Shown: positions 1,482 through 12,366 of the stretch, in pieces
How the letters are laid out: every line of letters begins with the position of its first letter
Position numbering within the stretch: the first letter of the stretch is position 1
Assembly (NCBI GenBank): GCA_004356455.1
Contig: SMWZ01000028.1
Coordinates: forward strand, 1-46,277
DNA: 46,277 nt
Source: Deltaproteobacteria bacterium
GTDB taxonomy: Bacteria > Myxococcota_A > UBA9160 > SZUA-336
Direction of reading: 5' to 3'
Made by a program: the position numbers and the translations under genes
Notes under the pieces: generated by a model
Database searches by the model: none
What the model was told of the DNA's origin: nothing
What the model saw: the letters and a program-made list of their open reading frames with translations, nothing else

Positions 1482-2882
1482 TCAGGCACGCCGCCGATAC
1501 CGCACGCGGCAGGGCTGCACGAGCTGCACCACCATCTTCGAGTGGTCGTTGCGATAGCTCTCCGATGGCTGGAGCATCTCGAAGCTGTAGCGGCGCAGCA
1601 GGATGCTGAAGATCGCCTTGAGCTGCATGATGGCAAAGGCGGCCCCGATACAGCGATGCCGCCCCCCGCCGAAGGGGATCCAGGCGAAGACGCGCTGGTC
1701 CTCCTGGCGCCCGGGCCGGTAGCGTTCCGGGTCGAAGCGTTCAGGGTCGGGAAAGCATTCCGGCATTCGGTTCGAGACGGCGATCGATGCGGCCACCAGT
1801 TTCCCCGCCGGGACGGTCCAGCGCTTGTAGTGGAAGTCGTACATGACCTTACGCAGCACGATGATGAGCGGTGGATGCAGACGCAGCGTCTCCTTGATCA
1901 CGTTCTCGAGCTCGGGGATCTCGCGCAGCGCCTGGTAGCTCACGTCGACCCCATCGGCGTAGATCTGCTCGAGCTCGGCCACGACCCGATCCATGTAGAC
2001 GGGGTTGCGCAGCAGCTCGATCAATGTCCACGCGGCCGTGCCGGAGGTCGTGTGGTGGCCTGCAAACATCATAGAGATGAAGATGCCGGTGATCTCGTCC
2101 GGCGTGTAACGGGGGCGACCGCCATCGTGATACAGGCTCGTGAGCACCTGGAGCAGGTCGTTGGGCTTGCGGCCCTCGGCCTTTCGCTGCTCGATGATCC
2201 CGACGATCATCTCCACCAGCCGCCTGCGGGCCTGGTCCCGCTTGCGGAAGGACGGCAGCGGTAGATAGGGGTTTACATACGCGATCGCGTCGGTGCCCCT
2301 CTCGAGCTCGTGATACTGGGTCGCGAACTCGGGGGTCAGCTCCTCTCGGAACTCCTTTCCGAGCAGGCAGGCGCTCGAGGTATAGATCGTGAGCTCCGCG
2401 AAGAAGTCGAGCAGGTCGATCTCCCCCTCTTCGCCCCAGCCCGCGAGCATGCGCTCGGTCTCGTCCGCGATCACCTGGGCGTGACCACGCATGAATTTGT
2501 CACGCAGCGAACGGTTGCGGAGCGCCTGCTTGCGCTGCTCGGGCGGCGCGTCGAAGACAACGCCCGCGCCGAAGATCGGCTTCATGAAGGGATAGGCCGC
2601 GGCCTGATCGAGCTGCTCGTCGGACGCGCGAAAAAAAGCCTCGTTTCCCTCCTCGCCCGTCAGCAGGACAACACGGTGGCCCGCCAGGTTGAACTCGCCG
2701 ATCTCTCCGCACTCGTCGCGCACCCGTTGCATCAGCGCGATCGGCCGGCGCCGCAGCTCGAGCAGATGACCGAGCCAGGGCAACCCTCCGGAGAGCTTGG
2801 GGGGATCGGAGCCCCTCGCAGCAGGCGCGGGCGTCTGAGTCGCAGCGGGAGACGCGACGGAGGCCGGGGTCGCGCTACTCAT
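1482..2882 (-). CDS. cyp51: Sterol 14-alpha-demethylase CYP51 (CYP51B-type)
   Basis: Long segments near-identical to recalled Mtb CYP51B1 (LMQRVRDECG, LDQA.AYPFM.PIFG.GVVFDA, FFAELTIYTSSACL.GK, FISMMFAGHHT, SYRNDHSKMVVQL); heme motif FGGGRHRCIG. Start chosen at ATG 2882 (track ORF starts 2912). Confidence 0.95.
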   Translation of the reverse strand: MSSATPASVASPAATQTPAPAARGSDPPKLSGGLPWLGHLLELRRRPIALMQRVRDECGEIGEFNLAGHRVVLLTGEEGNEAFFRASDEQLDQAAAYPFMKPIFGAGVVFDAPPEQRKQALRNRSLRDKFMRGHAQVIADETERMLAGWGEEGEIDLLDFFAELTIYTSSACLLGKEFREELTPEFATQYHELERGTDAIAYVNPYLPLPSFRKRDQARRRLVEMIVGIIEQRKAEGRKPNDLLQVLTSLYHDGGRPRYTPDEITGIFISMMFAGHHTTSGTAAWTLIELLRNPVYMDRVVAELEQIYADGVDVSYQALREIPELENVIKETLRLHPPLIIVLRKVMYDFHYKRWTVPAGKLVAASIAVSNRMPECFPDPERFDPERYRPGRQEDQRVFAWIPFGGGRHRCIGAAFAIMQLKAIFSILLRRYSFEMLQPSESYRNDHSKMVVQLVQPCRVRYRRRA

Positions 2883-2991
2883 CCCGAGCCCAGCCGAGCT
2901 CCCCCAGCGCACGTGCGGTGGCTGCGCCGATCCCGGACGACGCGCCCGTGACGAGCGCGGTGCGAGCCTCGGTAGCGAGCTTCCGGCTCAC
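2875..2991 (-). pseudogene. Remnant of a short-chain dehydrogenase (Rv0765c-like), N-terminal Rossmann fragment only
   Basis: Hand translation: MSRKLATEARTALVTGASSGIGAATARALGELGWARDE*. Contains the TGxxxGIG SDR motif; GTG start overlaps the cyp123 TGA; ends on the cyp51 start. Confidence 0.85.
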
Positions 2992-4166
2992 GGGGAGAAC
3001 TCAATCGGCATGGACGCGAAGCCACGCACGTTGATCGAGTGTACGCGCACCAGCTTCTCCCAGGCGATCTCGAAATTAGGGAAGCGCCTTTGGACCTCTT
3101 CCAGAGCTACCCGGCCCTCGAGCCGGGCCAGGGCCGCCCCCATACAGAAGTGCGTTCCGTAGCCGAAGGAGAGCATGGCGTTGGTGTTGCGCATGAGATC
3201 GAAGCGATCCGGATGCTCCCACACGCGTTCGTCGCGGCTCGCCGCCCCCAGGATCACGACCAGGCGGTCTCCCTCCTGGAGCTTCTCGCCGTGCAGCTCC
3301 AGATCCTGGGTCAGAGTGCGCGCCAGGGCCTGGGTCGAGCCGTCGTAGCGCAGCGTCTCCTCGATCCAGCGTGGGATCAAGCTCGGGTCGGAGCGAACCT
3401 TCTCGCGCTCCTGGGGGTTCTTCGAGATCCAGTAGAGGGCGTTGCCGAGCAGCTTCGTGGTGGTCTCGTTGCCCGCGATGATCATCAGGAAGAGAAAGCC
3501 GAGGACCTCTCGTGGGGTCAGACGATCGCCCTCGATCTCCGCCGCAAGCAGCGCACCGGTGAGATCGTCGTGAGGATGCTTCTCCCGGTCCGCGACCAGC
3601 TCCTGGAAGTAGTTGAGTATCTTTGCGGCCGCCTCCATGCCGGCGGGAGGGACGTCCAGCATGCCGTCCTCGCGGTGCAGGACGGTATCCGCCCAGCTTC
3701 GCAGGGGATCGCGATCCGCTTCGGGCACACCCAGCATCTCGCTGATGACGTCCATCGGGAGCTTCCCCGCGAACTCCTGGATGAAGTCACACTCGCCCCG
3801 GCCGATGAATCCATCGATGTGGCCCGTCGCGATCTCGCGAATGCGCGGCTCCAGGTTGGCCACGCGGCGCGGCGTGAAGGCGCGGTAGACCAGGGCGCGC
3901 ATGCGCGTATGGCGCGGTGGGTCCATCGCCAGGAATGACATGGTGGCATCCGCATCCGGGTGGGTAGCCGACGGATCGAGGGAGACCCCGTCGCGGCTTG
4001 AGTAGAGCTCTGTATCCCGCAGCGCGGCCTGTACGTCGGCGTGCCGCGACAGTGCCCAGAACCCGAGCTCTCGGTTGCGATAGGCGGGCGCCTCGTCGCG
4101 AAGACGCTTATAGATGGGGTACGGGTCCTCCTGGGTTGCGTAGGCGTAGGGGTTGTACTCGACCAT
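2988..4166 (-). CDS. cyp123: Cytochrome P450, CYP123-like
   Basis: 392 aa from ATG 4166; matches recalled Mtb CYP123 (EFAGKLPMDVISE, AD.VLHREDG..DVPP, FLFLM.IAGNETTTKLL, VRVHS.NVRGFA); heme motif FGYGTHFCMG. Confidence 0.88.
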   Translation of the reverse strand: MVEYNPYAYATQEDPYPIYKRLRDEAPAYRNRELGFWALSRHADVQAALRDTELYSSRDGVSLDPSATHPDADATMSFLAMDPPRHTRMRALVYRAFTPRRVANLEPRIREIATGHIDGFIGRGECDFIQEFAGKLPMDVISEMLGVPEADRDPLRSWADTVLHREDGMLDVPPAGMEAAAKILNYFQELVADREKHPHDDLTGALLAAEIEGDRLTPREVLGFLFLMIIAGNETTTKLLGNALYWISKNPQEREKVRSDPSLIPRWIEETLRYDGSTQALARTLTQDLELHGEKLQEGDRLVVILGAASRDERVWEHPDRFDLMRNTNAMLSFGYGTHFCMGAALARLEGRVALEEVQRRFPNFEIAWEKLVRVHSINVRGFASMPIEFSP

Positions 4167-4195
4167 GCGCGAGGACCTCGCTCGAGCTTTGGGCC

Positions 4196-4224
4196 ACCTT
4201 ATTCCATTTACATTTCGCCTGCAA
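4196..4224 (-). promoter_or_regulatory. Putative sigma70-type promoter for the P450 operon
   Basis: Minus strand TTGCAG-17 nt-TAAGGT, 30 nt upstream of the cyp123 ATG, in an AT-rich intergenic patch. Confidence 0.5.
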
Positions 4225-5149: not shown

Positions 5150-5806
5150 GTGACCGAAGCTACACACACCCACCTGCCGCTTCCCCCCAGAGGGCGTCGC
5201 TCGCACGCCGAGCGCACAGCGGAGACGCGCGCAAGGATCATCGCGGCCGTGGTGGAGAGCATCGCGGAGGTGGGATTTCAGCGCACCACGGCCAGCGAGA
5301 TCGCACAGCGAGCGGGCGTCACCTGGGGCGCCGTTCAGCATCACTTCGGGGCCAAGGACGGCATGCTCGTGGCCGCACTGGAGAACTCTTTCAATCGCTT
5401 CGCCCAGCGACTCGGAAATATCCCGCTCGAGGGAACCTCGCTCGAGAAACGTGCCTCGCTCTTCATCGATCGCGCCTGGGAGCACTTCAGCAGCGCCGAG
5501 TATCGCTCCACCTTCGAGATCCTGTTGAACTACCTCGGACGCGATGACCTGGAGCAGCACCCGACCTGGCAGGAGCGGATGTTCCGAGCCTGGGACCGGA
5601 TCTGGCTGCGCCTGTTCGGGGACGCTCCGCTTCCGCGACGGCGTCGTTTCGTGCTCCAGCACTATACGATCTCCGCGCTCTCGGGCCTGGCCTCTACACT
5701 CATGTTGGAAGGCGGAGAGGCGCGGCTGCGGAAGGGCGAGCTCGATCTGCTCAAGGACACCCTGGCACGAGAGCTCAGCCAGGGCATGCAAGACAGCGTG
5801 CGCTGA
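5150..5806 (+). CDS. TetR/AcrR family transcriptional regulator
   Basis: N-terminal HTH GFQRTTASEIAQRAGVTWGAVQHHFGAKDGML. Confidence 0.93.
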   Translation: MTEATHTHLPLPPRGRRSHAERTAETRARIIAAVVESIAEVGFQRTTASEIAQRAGVTWGAVQHHFGAKDGMLVAALENSFNRFAQRLGNIPLEGTSLEKRASLFIDRAWEHFSSAEYRSTFEILLNYLGRDDLEQHPTWQERMFRAWDRIWLRLFGDAPLPRRRRFVLQHYTISALSGLASTLMLEGGEARLRKGELDLLKDTLARELSQGMQDSVR

Positions 5807-6944: not shown

Positions 6945-8997
<2,053 letters not shown>

Positions 8998-9020: not shown

Positions 9021-10196
9021 TCACGCGCTCCCCAGAACGAGCCCACTGGTCGGGACGCCGGTGCCCGCCGTGACGAGAACGTGCTCGACATCCGCGATCT
9101 GGTTCACCGCCGTGCCCCGGACCTGGCGCACCGCCTCGCAGATCCCATTCATGCCGTGGATGTAAGCCTCTCCGAGCTGGCCGCCGTTGGGGTTGATAGG
9201 GAGAGCGCCGTCGAGCTCGATGTTCCCGTCCGCGATGAAATGACGCGCCTCGCCCCGATCGCAGAAGCCCAGCTCCTCGAGCTGGGTAAGCACGAAGGGC
9301 GTGAAGTGATCGTAGATCACGGCGCACTGAACGTCGGCCGGCTCAAGACCCGAGTGCTGCCACAGCTGATGACCCACCAGACCCATCTCCGGCAGCCCGG
9401 TGATGTCGCTGCGGTAGTAGCTGGTCATCACCTCCTGGTCCAAGCTCGAGCCTTGTGCGCTGGCGCGGATCAGGGCCGGAGGCTGCGCCAGATCCCGGGC
9501 GCGCTCGCTACGCGTCACGACCAGAGCCACCGCACCATCGCTCTCCTGACAGCAGTCCAGCAGATGGAGCGGCTCGACGATCCAGCGGGAGCTCTGATGC
9601 TCCTCGAGCGTGATCGAATGCTCGTAGAACCAGGCCTTGGGGTTGGTCGCGGCGTGCTTGCGGGCCGCCACGGCGACACGGCCGAAGTCCTCACTGGTGG
9701 CGCCGTACTCGTGCATGTACCGACGAGCGAACATGGCGACCCAGGCCGCCGGCGTTACCAGGCCGAAGGGCGCGTACCAATGGGTCGGGATCTGAGCGCC
9801 GGGCGGCGGGGGCGGCGGCTGCTGGCCCGATCCGAAGCGACGCCCGGAGCGCTCGTTCAAGGCTCGGTAGCACACCACGGCGTCGGCCGAGCCGGTTGCC
9901 ACGGCCATGGCCGCCTGATGGATCGTCGCGCAGCCGGCACCGCCACCGTAGTGAACGCGGCTGAAGTGGGTCAGGCTGGGAATGCCGAGACCGCGAGCCA
10001 CATCGATCTCAAGATTCGAGTCCTGCGCGAAGGTGACCATGCCATCGATATCGGCCGGCGAGAGGCCCGCGTCGGCGATGGCGGCCCGGACGGCTTCGAC
10101 GGCCAGCTGGAGCTCGCTGCGACCCGATTTCTTCGAGAACTCGGTCGCCCCAATCCCAACGATCGCCGCCTCATCCTTGAGCGTGGACCTCGGCAT
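9021..10196 (-). CDS. ltp2: Ltp2-like steroid side-chain retro-aldolase (thiolase fold, lipid-transfer protein family)
   Basis: Matches recalled Mtb Ltp2 (AAIVGIGAT.FSK.SGRSEL, HYGGGA, LLDCCQE.DGA, YDHFTPF, GGQLGEAYIHGMNG, HVLVTAGTGVPTSGL). Start chosen at ATG 10196. Confidence 0.92.
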   Translation of the reverse strand: MPRSTLKDEAAIVGIGATEFSKKSGRSELQLAVEAVRAAIADAGLSPADIDGMVTFAQDSNLEIDVARGLGIPSLTHFSRVHYGGGAGCATIHQAAMAVATGSADAVVCYRALNERSGRRFGSGQQPPPPPPGAQIPTHWYAPFGLVTPAAWVAMFARRYMHEYGATSEDFGRVAVAARKHAATNPKAWFYEHSITLEEHQSSRWIVEPLHLLDCCQESDGAVALVVTRSERARDLAQPPALIRASAQGSSLDQEVMTSYYRSDITGLPEMGLVGHQLWQHSGLEPADVQCAVIYDHFTPFVLTQLEELGFCDRGEARHFIADGNIELDGALPINPNGGQLGEAYIHGMNGICEAVRQVRGTAVNQIADVEHVLVTAGTGVPTSGLVLGSA

Positions 10197-10204
10197 CCCC
10201 GGGC

Positions 10205-10609
10205 TCAACTCGCGCGTGGCCGCCACAGCGGCAGCGTCCACTCGTCATGCACGCGAACGAAGCACACCTCCACGGGCATGCCGATGCAGACGTTAGCCGG
10301 ATCGATCTCGATCACATTGCCAACGACGCGTGTCCCCTCCTCGAGCTCCACCAGCGCAACCGCGAAGGGAGGATCGAACCCCGGCACGGGAGGATGGTGA
10401 TGAACCACGAAGCTGTAGACCTCTCCGCGACCGCTGGCCGTGACGTGGTTCCACCCCAGCGACTGACACGACGAGCACATGGGACGGGGCGGGTGGCGCA
10501 GCGTCCCGCACGACTGACAGCGCTGGATGCGAAGCTCGTCCTTCTCGACCCCTTCCCAGAAGAACGCCGAGTCCGCGTTCATGGTGGGCTGAGGCCGCCG
10601 GGCCGTCAA
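10205..10609 (-). CDS. DUF35 Zn-ribbon/OB-fold protein (equivalent to the ChsH2 C-terminal domain)
   Basis: AFFWEGV...ELRIQRCQSC...RHPPRPMCSSC...SGRGEVYSFVVHH...ALVELEEG; TTG start overlaps the upstream TGA. Confidence 0.9.
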   Translation of the reverse strand: MTARRPQPTMNADSAFFWEGVEKDELRIQRCQSCGTLRHPPRPMCSSCQSLGWNHVTASGRGEVYSFVVHHHPPVPGFDPPFAVALVELEEGTRVVGNVIEIDPANVCIGMPVEVCFVRVHDEWTLPLWRPRAS

Positions 10610-11640
10610 TTTTCCGGCACGCCGTAACGAAGCAGGGTGAACATGTTGGTGCCCACGATCTCATCACGTTGGTTGTAGTAGGTGTTCAGGTTCTTCTGGA
10701 AGTATCCCAGTCCGAGGCGTGTGCGCTTCAGGGGAGAGCAGTCGAGCAGCTCCACGGTAGAGGACACTCGGTCGCCCGGGCGCAAAGGCCGACCATAGGC
10801 TTGAACCGAGACCGTCGCAATCGTATCAGTCGCGCCCGGCGGCGTGAACATCGCGCTGCGTCCGGCCCCGTCTCCTGTGCGAGGCGGCCATGGCTTGCGC
10901 TCGAGGCAGTCGACGTCCGGTGCATTCGCATCTACGCCACTATGACCCGCACGCCCCATCGACCAGGTGATCAGCGCCATGGGCGGTGCGATCACCCCCC
11001 CGTGCCGGCTCTTTCTCGCGTATTCAGCATCGATGTAGAGGGGGTTACCGTCTTCGACCATGTCACACCAGTACATGATCTGGACCTCGCTCACGGGATA
11101 GCCTCCCCGCATGAGCGGACTGACCTTTCCGAGCCGCTCGCGGGCAAAGTCGGGAATCTGCGGGTCCACTTCCAGTTCGGGCTTCTTCAGCTCGAGCGAC
11201 GGCCGAACCGCTCCAGAATCGCGCGAGGGCATTACGAGCGTAGCGCTTGCACGTGCCGCCACCCCCAGCTCGTTCGACGCCTCCAGCCCGACCTCGACCC
11301 GGCACTCGTCGCCTTCCCGAAACTTCCGCTTGACGCTGCCCTTTACGAGGGCGACATCGCCCGGCACAAGCTGCCCAAGCATCTGCAGACTGGTCTCTCG
11401 AAAGTCGCTCTCGGGTCCGCACCAATCCGTCACGAAGCGTCCGAAGAGCGCCTGCTCGAACATGGTGTTGACGAACATGTCGCGGTTGCCGATCGATTTC
11501 GAGTAGCCCGGATTGTGATGGTACGGCATCAGGTCGCGCGTGCCGCACACACCGAGCACGAGCGTCTTGAGCGTAATCGGGAAGCGCAGGACCGGAAGCT
11601 TCTCCCCCTCGCACACATCCTCCCAGTACTTGAAGTCCAT
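10606..11640 (-). CDS. Double hotdog (MaoC) steroid enoyl-CoA hydratase: ChsH1-like domain fused to ChsH2-N-like domain
   Basis: N-half TRDLMPYHH...DMFVN...RFVTDWCGP resembles ChsH1 with the catalytic D-x4-H intact. C-half PVSEVQIMYWCDMVEDGNPLY...GVIAPPMA..TWSM resembles the ChsH2 MaoC domain. Confidence 0.85.
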   Translation of the reverse strand: MDFKYWEDVCEGEKLPVLRFPITLKTLVLGVCGTRDLMPYHHNPGYSKSIGNRDMFVNTMFEQALFGRFVTDWCGPESDFRETSLQMLGQLVPGDVALVKGSVKRKFREGDECRVEVGLEASNELGVAARASATLVMPSRDSGAVRPSLELKKPELEVDPQIPDFARERLGKVSPLMRGGYPVSEVQIMYWCDMVEDGNPLYIDAEYARKSRHGGVIAPPMALITWSMGRAGHSGVDANAPDVDCLERKPWPPRTGDGAGRSAMFTPPGATDTIATVSVQAYGRPLRPGDRVSSTVELLDCSPLKRTRLGLGYFQKNLNTYYNQRDEIVGTNMFTLLRYGVPEN

Positions 11641-11649
11641 CAGCTCGGA

Positions 11650-12366
11650 TCAGTCCAGCAGCGAAGGATCGCGCGCGAGCTCGCGACGCGCGTAGGCTTC
11701 GAAGAGCATCTCACCGTACTCCAGCGCATAGCGTGACAGGGCTTCGGCGGTCTCCGAGTCAAGCTCCTCGCGCTGCTTGCCCATGCACGCCACCTCGTAG
11801 GCCTTGCGGCAGCGCCACTCGAAGCTCAGTGCTCGCACCAGCACCTCGCCGACGGTCGTGGCCGTAACCAGCGTCCCGTGCTGCGCCAGGATGGCCATGT
11901 CGGCCGAGCCATAGGCCGCCGCCAGCCGGGCCGCCACCGCAGGCGTGAGGACCGCCCCCTCGTACTCAGTGTAGAGCACGGCCTTCCCGCCTCCGTTGGC
12001 ACCTGACTGATCGAGCAGCGGCGGGAGCTCGCCGGCTGCGGCCCAGATGGTTCCGTAGGGAGGGTGGTTGTGCAGCGCCACGCGGATGTCCGGTCGCGCT
12101 CGATGCAGCTCGCCATGAAAGACAATGGTGGGATTCGCTCGGCCCTCGCCCTGCAACACCTGGCCAGCGTAGTCCACGCGCAGGATGTGACTGGCACGAA
12201 CCTCCTCCCAGAAGAGGCCAACGGGGGTCACGAGCAGCGTCTCGTCGTCCCGGTCTCGGATGCTTACATGCCCGGCCAGCTTGTCGTCATAGCCCTGGGA
12301 GCCCAGGATGCGGACCAGCAGCGCGAGCTGCTGGCGAGGGGAAAACTTAACAGCCGGGTCACTCAC
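11650..12366 (-). CDS. Class II aldolase/adducin family protein
   Basis: GHVSIRD, LLVTPVG, FHGELHRARPDIRVALHNHPPY, ILAQHG. Confidence 0.88.
   Translation of the reverse strand: MSDPAVKFSPRQQLALLVRILGSQGYDDKLAGHVSIRDRDDETLLVTPVGLFWEEVRASHILRVDYAGQVLQGEGRANPTIVFHGELHRARPDIRVALHNHPPYGTIWAAAGELPPLLDQSGANGGGKAVLYTEYEGAVLTPAVAARLAAAYGSADMAILAQHGTLVTATTVGEVLVRALSFEWRCRKAYEVACMGKQREELDSETAEALSRYALEYGEMLFEAYARRELARDPSLLD

Follow-up and report, generated by a model that had tools for sequence, protein, structure and literature searches.

A fused double-hotdog hydratase beside a free DUF35 subunit and an Ltp2-type aldolase: a predicted untethered steroid side-chain operon in an uncultured member of the Myxococcota

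The ChsH1-ChsH2-Ltp2 complex is a candidate drug target in Mycobacterium tuberculosis and a lever in the industrial bioconversion of sterols, and its textbook feature is a DUF35 domain that covalently tethers the hydratase to the aldolase. Can such a system do without the tether? The question is raised by a contig of an uncultured bacterium of the Myxococcota (SMWZ01000028.1), whose 46,277 nucleotides (nt) are called the window here. Its minus strand carries a predicted single-chain hydratase, which we name Fus, followed by a separate DUF35 protein, an Ltp2-type aldolase and a FadA-type thiolase. We consider it fairly probable that this locus is a functional, untethered hydratase/retro-aldolase/thiolase operon of the ChsH-Ltp2 kind, which would remove a C3 steroid side chain. 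The features concerned are the following.

10606..11640, minus strand: Fus, predicted 344-amino-acid single-chain double-hotdog (MaoC-type) enoyl-CoA hydratase
11533..11535 and 11518..11520, minus strand: codons of D36 and H41, respectively, the dyad in the N domain of Fus
10205..10609, minus strand: free DUF35 subunit, 134 amino acids from a TTG start, with a Cys4 zinc ribbon and an OB fold
9021..10196, minus strand: Ltp2-type steroid side-chain aldolase, 391 amino acids from an ATG start
7792..8955, minus strand: FadA-type steroid 3-ketoacyl-CoA thiolase, 387 amino acids, with matches to NF005889, Thiolase_N and Thiolase_C

In the canonical scheme, ChsH1 and the MaoC domain of ChsH2 (its N-domain, ChsH2N) form the hydratase, and Ltp2 together with the DUF35 domain of ChsH2 forms the aldolase (PMC12502768, PMC12329534). 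In the window, Fus, DUF35, Ltp2 and FadA were shown to be four separate, translationally coupled genes. The stop codon of Fus, a TGA at 10606-10608, overlaps the TTG at which DUF35 begins; the reading frames of the genes differ, so that no single change of a stop base could join them. The ATG of Ltp2 follows 8 nt after the DUF35 stop, and a gap of 65 nt separates ltp2 from FadA downstream. DUF35 has an alternative start (ATG at 10582, giving 125 amino acids), and the longest open reading frame (ORF) of Ltp2 begins with GTG at 10241. The initial annotation of this DNA had described a single-chain hydratase with a ChsH1-like and a ChsH2N-like part, a separate DUF35 protein with all four zinc cysteines and then Ltp2, and this description is borne out by the ORFs, the domain matches and the motifs. 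Its statement that hydratase and DUF35 are not covalently linked also stands, DUF35 being a separate ORF in another frame.

The TGA between Fus and DUF35, for which a sequencing error had been allowed, is real: eight independent assemblies (from ENA, Logan, NCBI and JGI) agree at 99.84-99.92% identity over 11 kb with unchanged gene calls, and diverged relatives keep the ORFs separate. These relatives, at 83% DNA identity (81% for Fus), have Fus, DUF35, Ltp2 and FadA in the same order, with TGATG and ATGA overlaps at the junctions. At least 22 contigs encode exactly this Fus protein, and its full-length homologues form about 250 clusters with a length of about 344 amino acids.

What kind of protein is Fus? 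Its N domain (residues ~1-140) is ChsH1-like and its C domain (~171-344) ChsH2N-like, with a linker at ~141-170. By sequence, M. tuberculosis ChsH1 (4wnb_B, E 4.5e-8) is the match for residues 15-102, and the N-domain of M. tuberculosis ChsH2 (4wnb_A, E 1.8e-13) that for residues 180-338; the PDB entry 4w78 names the ChsH1 and ChsH2 chains in reverse of 4wnb. A PDB sequence search with Fus at E<=0.01 returned nothing besides ChsH1, ChsH2 and HadB subunits, and its closest solved sequence relatives are ChsH2N and ChsH1. The N domain carries the motif G-T-R-D36-L-M-P-Y-H41, i.e. a TRD-x4-H dyad, of which D36 and H41 are invariant across 35 homologues with 54-94% identity. In the second domain Tyr202 occupies the position of the catalytic His, and N199-P-L-Y202 is invariant in the same 35 homologues.

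An AlphaFold2 model built on the alignment of these homologues (predicted local distance difference test score 92.4, predicted template modelling score 0.89) shows Fus to be a confidently predicted double hotdog, of which one domain is catalytic and the other inert, with a short helix. The central helix of the model has 16 residues (59-74) in the N domain versus 7 (220-226) in the C domain. In ChsH2 this helix has 9 residues, which opens a pocket for the steroid nucleus, and in PhaJ it has 16; the split in Fus thus suggests the same division of labour as between ChsH1 (long helix) and ChsH2 (short helix, open pocket) (PMC11321319). Foldseek of the model against the PDB, a comparison with no means of ranking ChsH1/ChsH2, a pair of chains, against targets of one chain, returned generic double-hotdog dehydratases only, with template modelling scores of 0.62-0.66 and root-mean-square deviations of 8-9 Å. 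The catalytic domain, N-terminal in Fus, aligns to the C-terminal half of two solved double hotdogs, 4V12 and 5I7N, so that the domain order of Fus is swapped with respect to these two. Identity as a mesaconyl-CoA or itaconyl-CoA hydratase was considered and rejected, because these enzymes matched in structure but not in sequence at E<=0.01.

Sequence comparison shows that the two genes behind Fus encode close orthologues of the two components of the Ltp2-ChsH2(DUF35) aldolase of T. curvata, which has been crystallised. DUF35 exceeds the Pfam cut-offs for zf-ChsH2 (41.8 bits, cut-off 23.2) and OB_ChsH2_C (77.2 bits, cut-off 27.1), has its zinc cysteines at Cys31, Cys34, Cys45 and Cys48, and matches T. 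curvata ChsH2(DUF35) (6ok1_B) with E 9.6e-40 and 139 bits. Ltp2 scores 676 bits against NF005892 (cut-off 469) and 612.6 bits against T. curvata Ltp2 (TcLtp2, 6ok1_A), with 72% identity. In TcLtp2 the base is Tyr294, the oxyanion hole is formed by His296 and the acid is Tyr344, and the aldolase Sal has YDCY and Gln instead (PMC12329534). Y295-D-H297-F and Y345 of the window's Ltp2 align with these three TcLtp2 residues, and the catalytic Tyr/Tyr pair, the YDHF motif and the Cys4 zinc site are all intact. Assignment of Ltp2 as a Sal-type (C5) aldolase was ruled out by the YDHF/Tyr344 motif and by the scores. FadA scores 670 bits against NF005889, the 'steroid 3-ketoacyl-CoA thiolase' model (cut-off 515).

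How would such an operon work? Fus would hydrate the 17(20)-enoyl-CoA of a C3 side chain of the pregnene-20-carboxyl-CoA type. The free DUF35 would bind Ltp2 as an obligate structural subunit in an alpha2-beta2 complex like that of 6OK1, and Ltp2-DUF35 would cleave the 17-hydroxy product to a 17-ketosteroid and propionyl-CoA. Cleavage by the aldolase would then pull the unfavourable hydration forward by diffusion or by non-covalent contact, and not through a covalent tether. That an untethered system is viable is indicated by two precedents. In Comamonas testosteroni TA441 the MaoC and DUF35 parts of ChsH2, expressed separately, keep hydratase and aldolase activity (PMC12502768). In Mycolicibacterium neoaurum ChsH4 is an independent DUF35 protein of 138 amino acids whose gene shares an operon with that of the sterol aldolase Atf1; ChsH4 and Atf1 were identified as key genes of their sub-pathway (PMC10398937).

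Where did the combination come from? The initial annotation had taken it for a re-partitioned ChsH1/ChsH2 pair, a view that the domain trees do not support. Both Fus domains fall into a separate clade of order-swapped fused proteins, ChsH1-like part first and ChsH2N-like part second (SH-aLRT (Shimodaira-Hasegawa approximate likelihood ratio test) support of 97 and 95 in the two domain trees, which were built by a quick method and include M. tuberculosis as partial sequences). The other clade holds M. tuberculosis ChsH1/ChsH2N, the ChsH1/ChsH2 of contig C181 of the source genome, the hotdog pair of its contig C175, and the split genes of the bacterial family. Because both domains group apart from this canonical and local ChsH clade, Fus is, as far as the trees go, an old and separate lineage and not a re-cut of local ChsH1/ChsH2 genes. 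A search of 31 other genomes of the family did not find Fus, and in the wider class 2 of 29 genomes had it; orthologues with 62-73% identity occur in other Myxococcota metagenome-assembled genomes (MAGs) and in one Dehalococcoidia MAG.

The free DUF35 has a different background. In four genomes from three sister genera, ChsH2N, DUF35, ChsH1 and Ltp2 follow one another in this order as separate ORFs joined by 4-nt overlaps of the GTGA/TTGA type. ChsH2N has 182-186 amino acids there and DUF35 139-148, and identity to the window's proteins is 77-79% for Ltp2 and 67-70% for DUF35. These clusters suggest that the free DUF35 stems from an older fission of ChsH2 within the family, which predates the operon in the window. 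The sister-genus loci (L056-L059, L071-L073) are in themselves natural cases of ChsH2 fission at the MaoC/DUF35 linker. The following history may be proposed: ChsH2 would have split into ChsH2N and DUF35 within the family; the split ChsH2N and ChsH1 genes would have been lost from the operon in the window's lineage, with DUF35-Ltp2 kept; a pre-existing fused hydratase of the order-swapped clade would have been recruited upstream of DUF35-Ltp2; and FadA would have been added downstream. Replacement of ChsH2N/ChsH1 by Fus in situ was also considered and was dropped, the sister-genus clusters having no flanks in common with the window.

How far nature has gone in rearranging these parts was seen in metagenomes. 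A HMMER scan of 1.8 billion cluster representatives gave 1749 relatives, and the best 150 were typed with local domain profiles. With H1 for the ChsH1-type and H2N for the ChsH2N-type domain, the best 150 of 1749 comprised:

83: H2N-H1 fusion
17: H1-H2N fusion, the order of Fus
10: H2N-DUF35-H1 triple fusion
1: H1-H2N-DUF35 triple fusion (P0126)
1: H1-H2N-H1
38: single-domain proteins or fragments

P0126 (locus L067) falls inside the Fus-order clade, is followed by a thiolase-like ORF and is known from one 1.6-kb contig; as a natural H1-H2N-DUF35 chain it provides a Rosetta-stone link of the Fus clade with DUF35. The H2N-DUF35-H1 single chains have 421-491 amino acids (P0153, P0159, P0167, P0168, P0172, P0189, P0210, P0215, P0223 and P0255), and no description of either triple fusion was found in the literature searched. 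The catalytic hotdog, the inert hotdog and DUF35 have thus been shuffled by nature into most possible arrangements, those on record here being split, H2N-H1, H1-H2N, H2N-DUF35-H1, H1-H2N-DUF35 and free DUF35.

Several observations weigh against a C3-specific untethered operon. In other MAGs most Fus orthologues immediately follow the genes of a heteromeric acyl-CoA dehydrogenase (ACAD) pair and have neither DUF35 nor Ltp2 beside them, which fits a hydratase of another beta-oxidation cycle. Fus stands outside the characterised ChsH1/ChsH2 clade, so that its activity on a C17(20) enoyl-CoA is only putative. No ACAD (ChsE1/E2) is present in the Fus-DUF35-Ltp2 operon, and no orthologue of the Fus-linked ACAD pair with >45% identity was found in the source genome, a 3.4-Mb MAG that is 90% complete. 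The ChsH1/ChsH2-type sets of this genome, on contigs C181, C175 and C193, could serve Ltp2 in trans. Lastly, no flanking synteny is shared between the sister-genus clusters and the window, which makes the proposed displacement of ChsH2N/ChsH1 a re-assembly of the operon.

The set on C181 (28556-33409, locus L009) is canonical: ChsH2(MaoC+DUF35), ACAD, ChsH1, Ltp2, FadA and a short-chain dehydrogenase/reductase, in the order of C. testosteroni TA441 ORF40-43. Its Ltp2 paralogue has YDAF, not YDHF (His296 replaced by Ala), and among the Ltp paralogues of the genome only the window's Ltp2 has the full YDHF motif. Contigs C175 and C193 bear further split hotdog pairs. Three Ltp2-type proteins of the genome score above the NF005892 cut-off.

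The alternative that survives best, which we hold to be rather unlikely, has Fus working as hydratase in a different cycle of side-chain beta-oxidation (C5 or C8, like ChsH3/CasD) and coming to lie beside DUF35-Ltp2 by operon shuffling, with one of the canonical ChsH1/ChsH2 sets of the genome carrying out 17(20)-hydration in trans. It draws on the ACAD-linked orthologues, on the position of Fus outside the canonical clade and on the pairs of C181, C175 and C193, and further on one genome (L016/L054) in which Fus adjoins a complete canonical ChsH2-ACAD-ChsH1-Ltp2-FadA cluster and hence is not the C3 hydratase there. This alternative is at odds, however, with the translational coupling of Fus, DUF35 and Ltp2, which is kept at 83% DNA identity, and with locus L026, where an orthologue of Fus stands in the order Ltp-DUF35-Fus. 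The natural H1-H2N-DUF35 fusion within the Fus-order clade likewise speaks for a working connection with DUF35. In addition, orthologues of the family's ChsH2N/ChsH1 partners were not found in the genome: in the trees, the pair on C175 has a different position.

According to a second alternative, which appears quite improbable, the names ChsH and Ltp2 mislead and the substrate is atypical or not a steroid: a branched or alicyclic acyl-CoA, such as a hopanoid or isoprenoid side chain or a 14-methyl sterol intermediate. The Fus clade is uncharacterised, a CYP51 gene and two other cytochrome P450 genes (P450s) lie nearby, and a broad aldolase/thiolase repertoire is suggested by the many heteromeric ACAD pairs of the genome and its five more pairs of an Ltp-like protein and an adjacent free DUF35 (contigs C18, C25, C58, C193 and C219). 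Against this, the window's Ltp2 has the same catalytic motifs as TcLtp2, which is C3-specific, and shares 72% identity with it; FadA exceeds the cut-off of the equivalog model for steroid thiolases; and KshA-type oxygenases are found in the genome (three KshA_C-domain proteins above cut-off, on contigs C25, C87 and C92). Taken as a whole, the MAG gives the impression of a heavy investment in catabolism of the steroid-like kind.

The remaining explanation takes the boundary between Fus and DUF35 for an error of sequencing or assembly, or for a recent frameshift that turns the gene into a pseudogene, the true protein being a longer fusion. It has next to no probability, since the single-chain P0126, a distant metagenomic relative, is the one point in its favour, and against it stand the same ORFs in the eight assemblies, the start/stop overlaps of the diverged relatives, the differing frames and the homologue clusters that stop at about 344 amino acids.

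We thus return to the untethered operon as the preferred reading. A far-reaching extension of it, unlikely in our judgement, would make the Fus clade an unrecognised, ancient, order-swapped (catalytic-first) family of single-chain steroid hydratases, able to replace ChsH1/ChsH2 and docking non-covalently on free DUF35-Ltp2; together with CYP51, it would mark a sterol side-chain route of the Myxococcota with a different substrate range, e.g. 14-methyl sterols.

By the ORF calls, the minus-strand gene row runs from 12366 to 6945 and comprises a class II aldolase-family gene, Fus, DUF35, Ltp2, FadA and a Rieske-domain protein. Its two outer genes are the following.

11650..12366, minus strand: class II aldolase/adducin-family gene, 238 amino acids
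6945..7670, minus strand: Rieske [2Fe-2S]-domain protein, 241 amino acids, closing the gene row on its strand

The class II aldolase gene is located between rdgB and fus. Its stop lies 9 nt before the ATG of Fus and it is probably co-transcribed with fus; it is kept in the 99.9%-identical assemblies and missing at the same spot in the 83%-identical relatives (L035-L037). In the Rieske protein the domain is C-terminal (residues 144-212) and follows an N-terminal part that was assigned to no domain; just past its gene (the plus-strand stretch 5150-5806 included) lie a TetR-family regulator and a metallo-beta-lactamase-fold hydrolase. A promoter and terminator scan gave no promoter-like sites, and terminator-like sites were at chance level. 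The CYP51 sterol 14-alpha-demethylase gene (1482-2912, minus strand, 476 amino acids) scores 609 bits against M. tuberculosis CYP51B1 (1e9x) and lies 6 kb from the operon. Two more P450 genes, both on the minus strand, flank it at 72-1274 and ~2988-4200. A CYP51 beside side-chain catabolic genes is unusual for a Myxococcota MAG.

What, then, does the locus add? Its departure from a well-studied enzyme system is real, though modest: a free DUF35 and a hydratase of another clade are evidently compatible with a genuine Ltp2 of the YDHF type. No mechanism is overturned, since experiments have already demonstrated untethered function. The locus and its relatives offer a natural test set on whether the tether matters for channelling, as well as compact single-chain hydratases for pathway engineering. 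They also extend ChsH/Ltp2-type steroid side-chain genes to uncultured Myxococcota, for which no report was found in the literature searched. The architecture had been put forward as undescribed; for the exact combination of an order-swapped fused hydratase, a free DUF35 and Ltp2 this agrees with the literature searched, in which no description was found, and for its elements it does not, as free DUF35, separated domains and fused two-MaoC hydratases have precedents.

Four known systems allow a direct comparison. With the ChsH1-ChsH2-Ltp2 system (igr operon of M. tuberculosis; T. curvata, 4WNB and 6OK1; ORF40/42/43 of TA441) the window shares the combination of a catalytic D-x4-H hotdog and an inert short-helix hotdog, a DUF35 zinc-ribbon/OB protein as the predicted partner of a thiolase-fold aldolase encoded by adjacent, coupled genes, and the Ltp2 itself, 72% identical to TcLtp2 with YDHF and the equivalent of Tyr344. 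It differs in that its hotdog units form one polypeptide, catalytic then inert, of a separate clade; in that Fus stops at residue 344 and DUF35 is a free protein, not the C-terminus of ChsH2; and in that the operon lacks the ACAD (ChsE1/E2) and has FadA downstream.

The Atf1-ChsH4 pair of M. neoaurum resembles the window in having a DUF35-only protein in an aldolase operon and the hydratase as a separate protein. Unlike the YDHF Ltp2-type aldolase of the window, however, Atf1 is Sal-like and acts on a C5 (22-hydroxy) intermediate, and its operon is without a hydratase gene.

ChsH3 (Rv3538), CasD and CasQ are steroid hydratases in which two MaoC domains are fused and DUF35 is lacking (PMC11321319, citing Schroeter 2022). 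Fus likewise combines two MaoC/hotdog domains in one chain and has no DUF35, a likeness drawn from their published description. In contrast to the window, these hydratases act on C5 side chains that then pass through dehydrogenase and thiolase steps, with no aldolase operon.

Shy-Sal of Proteobacteria (9MYR; PMC11321319, PMC12329534) also combines a hydratase and a thiolase-fold aldolase with DUF35. Shy differs from the proteins of the window in that it consists of an N-terminal DUF35 and one MaoC domain, is homodimeric and has a Cys3His zinc site, and Sal differs from the window's Ltp2 in its motif, YDCY with Gln352, and in cleaving C5 side chains. The distance is also seen in the scores of the window's Ltp2 and DUF35, which are 133 and 65 bits against 9MYR versus 613 and 139 bits against 6OK1.

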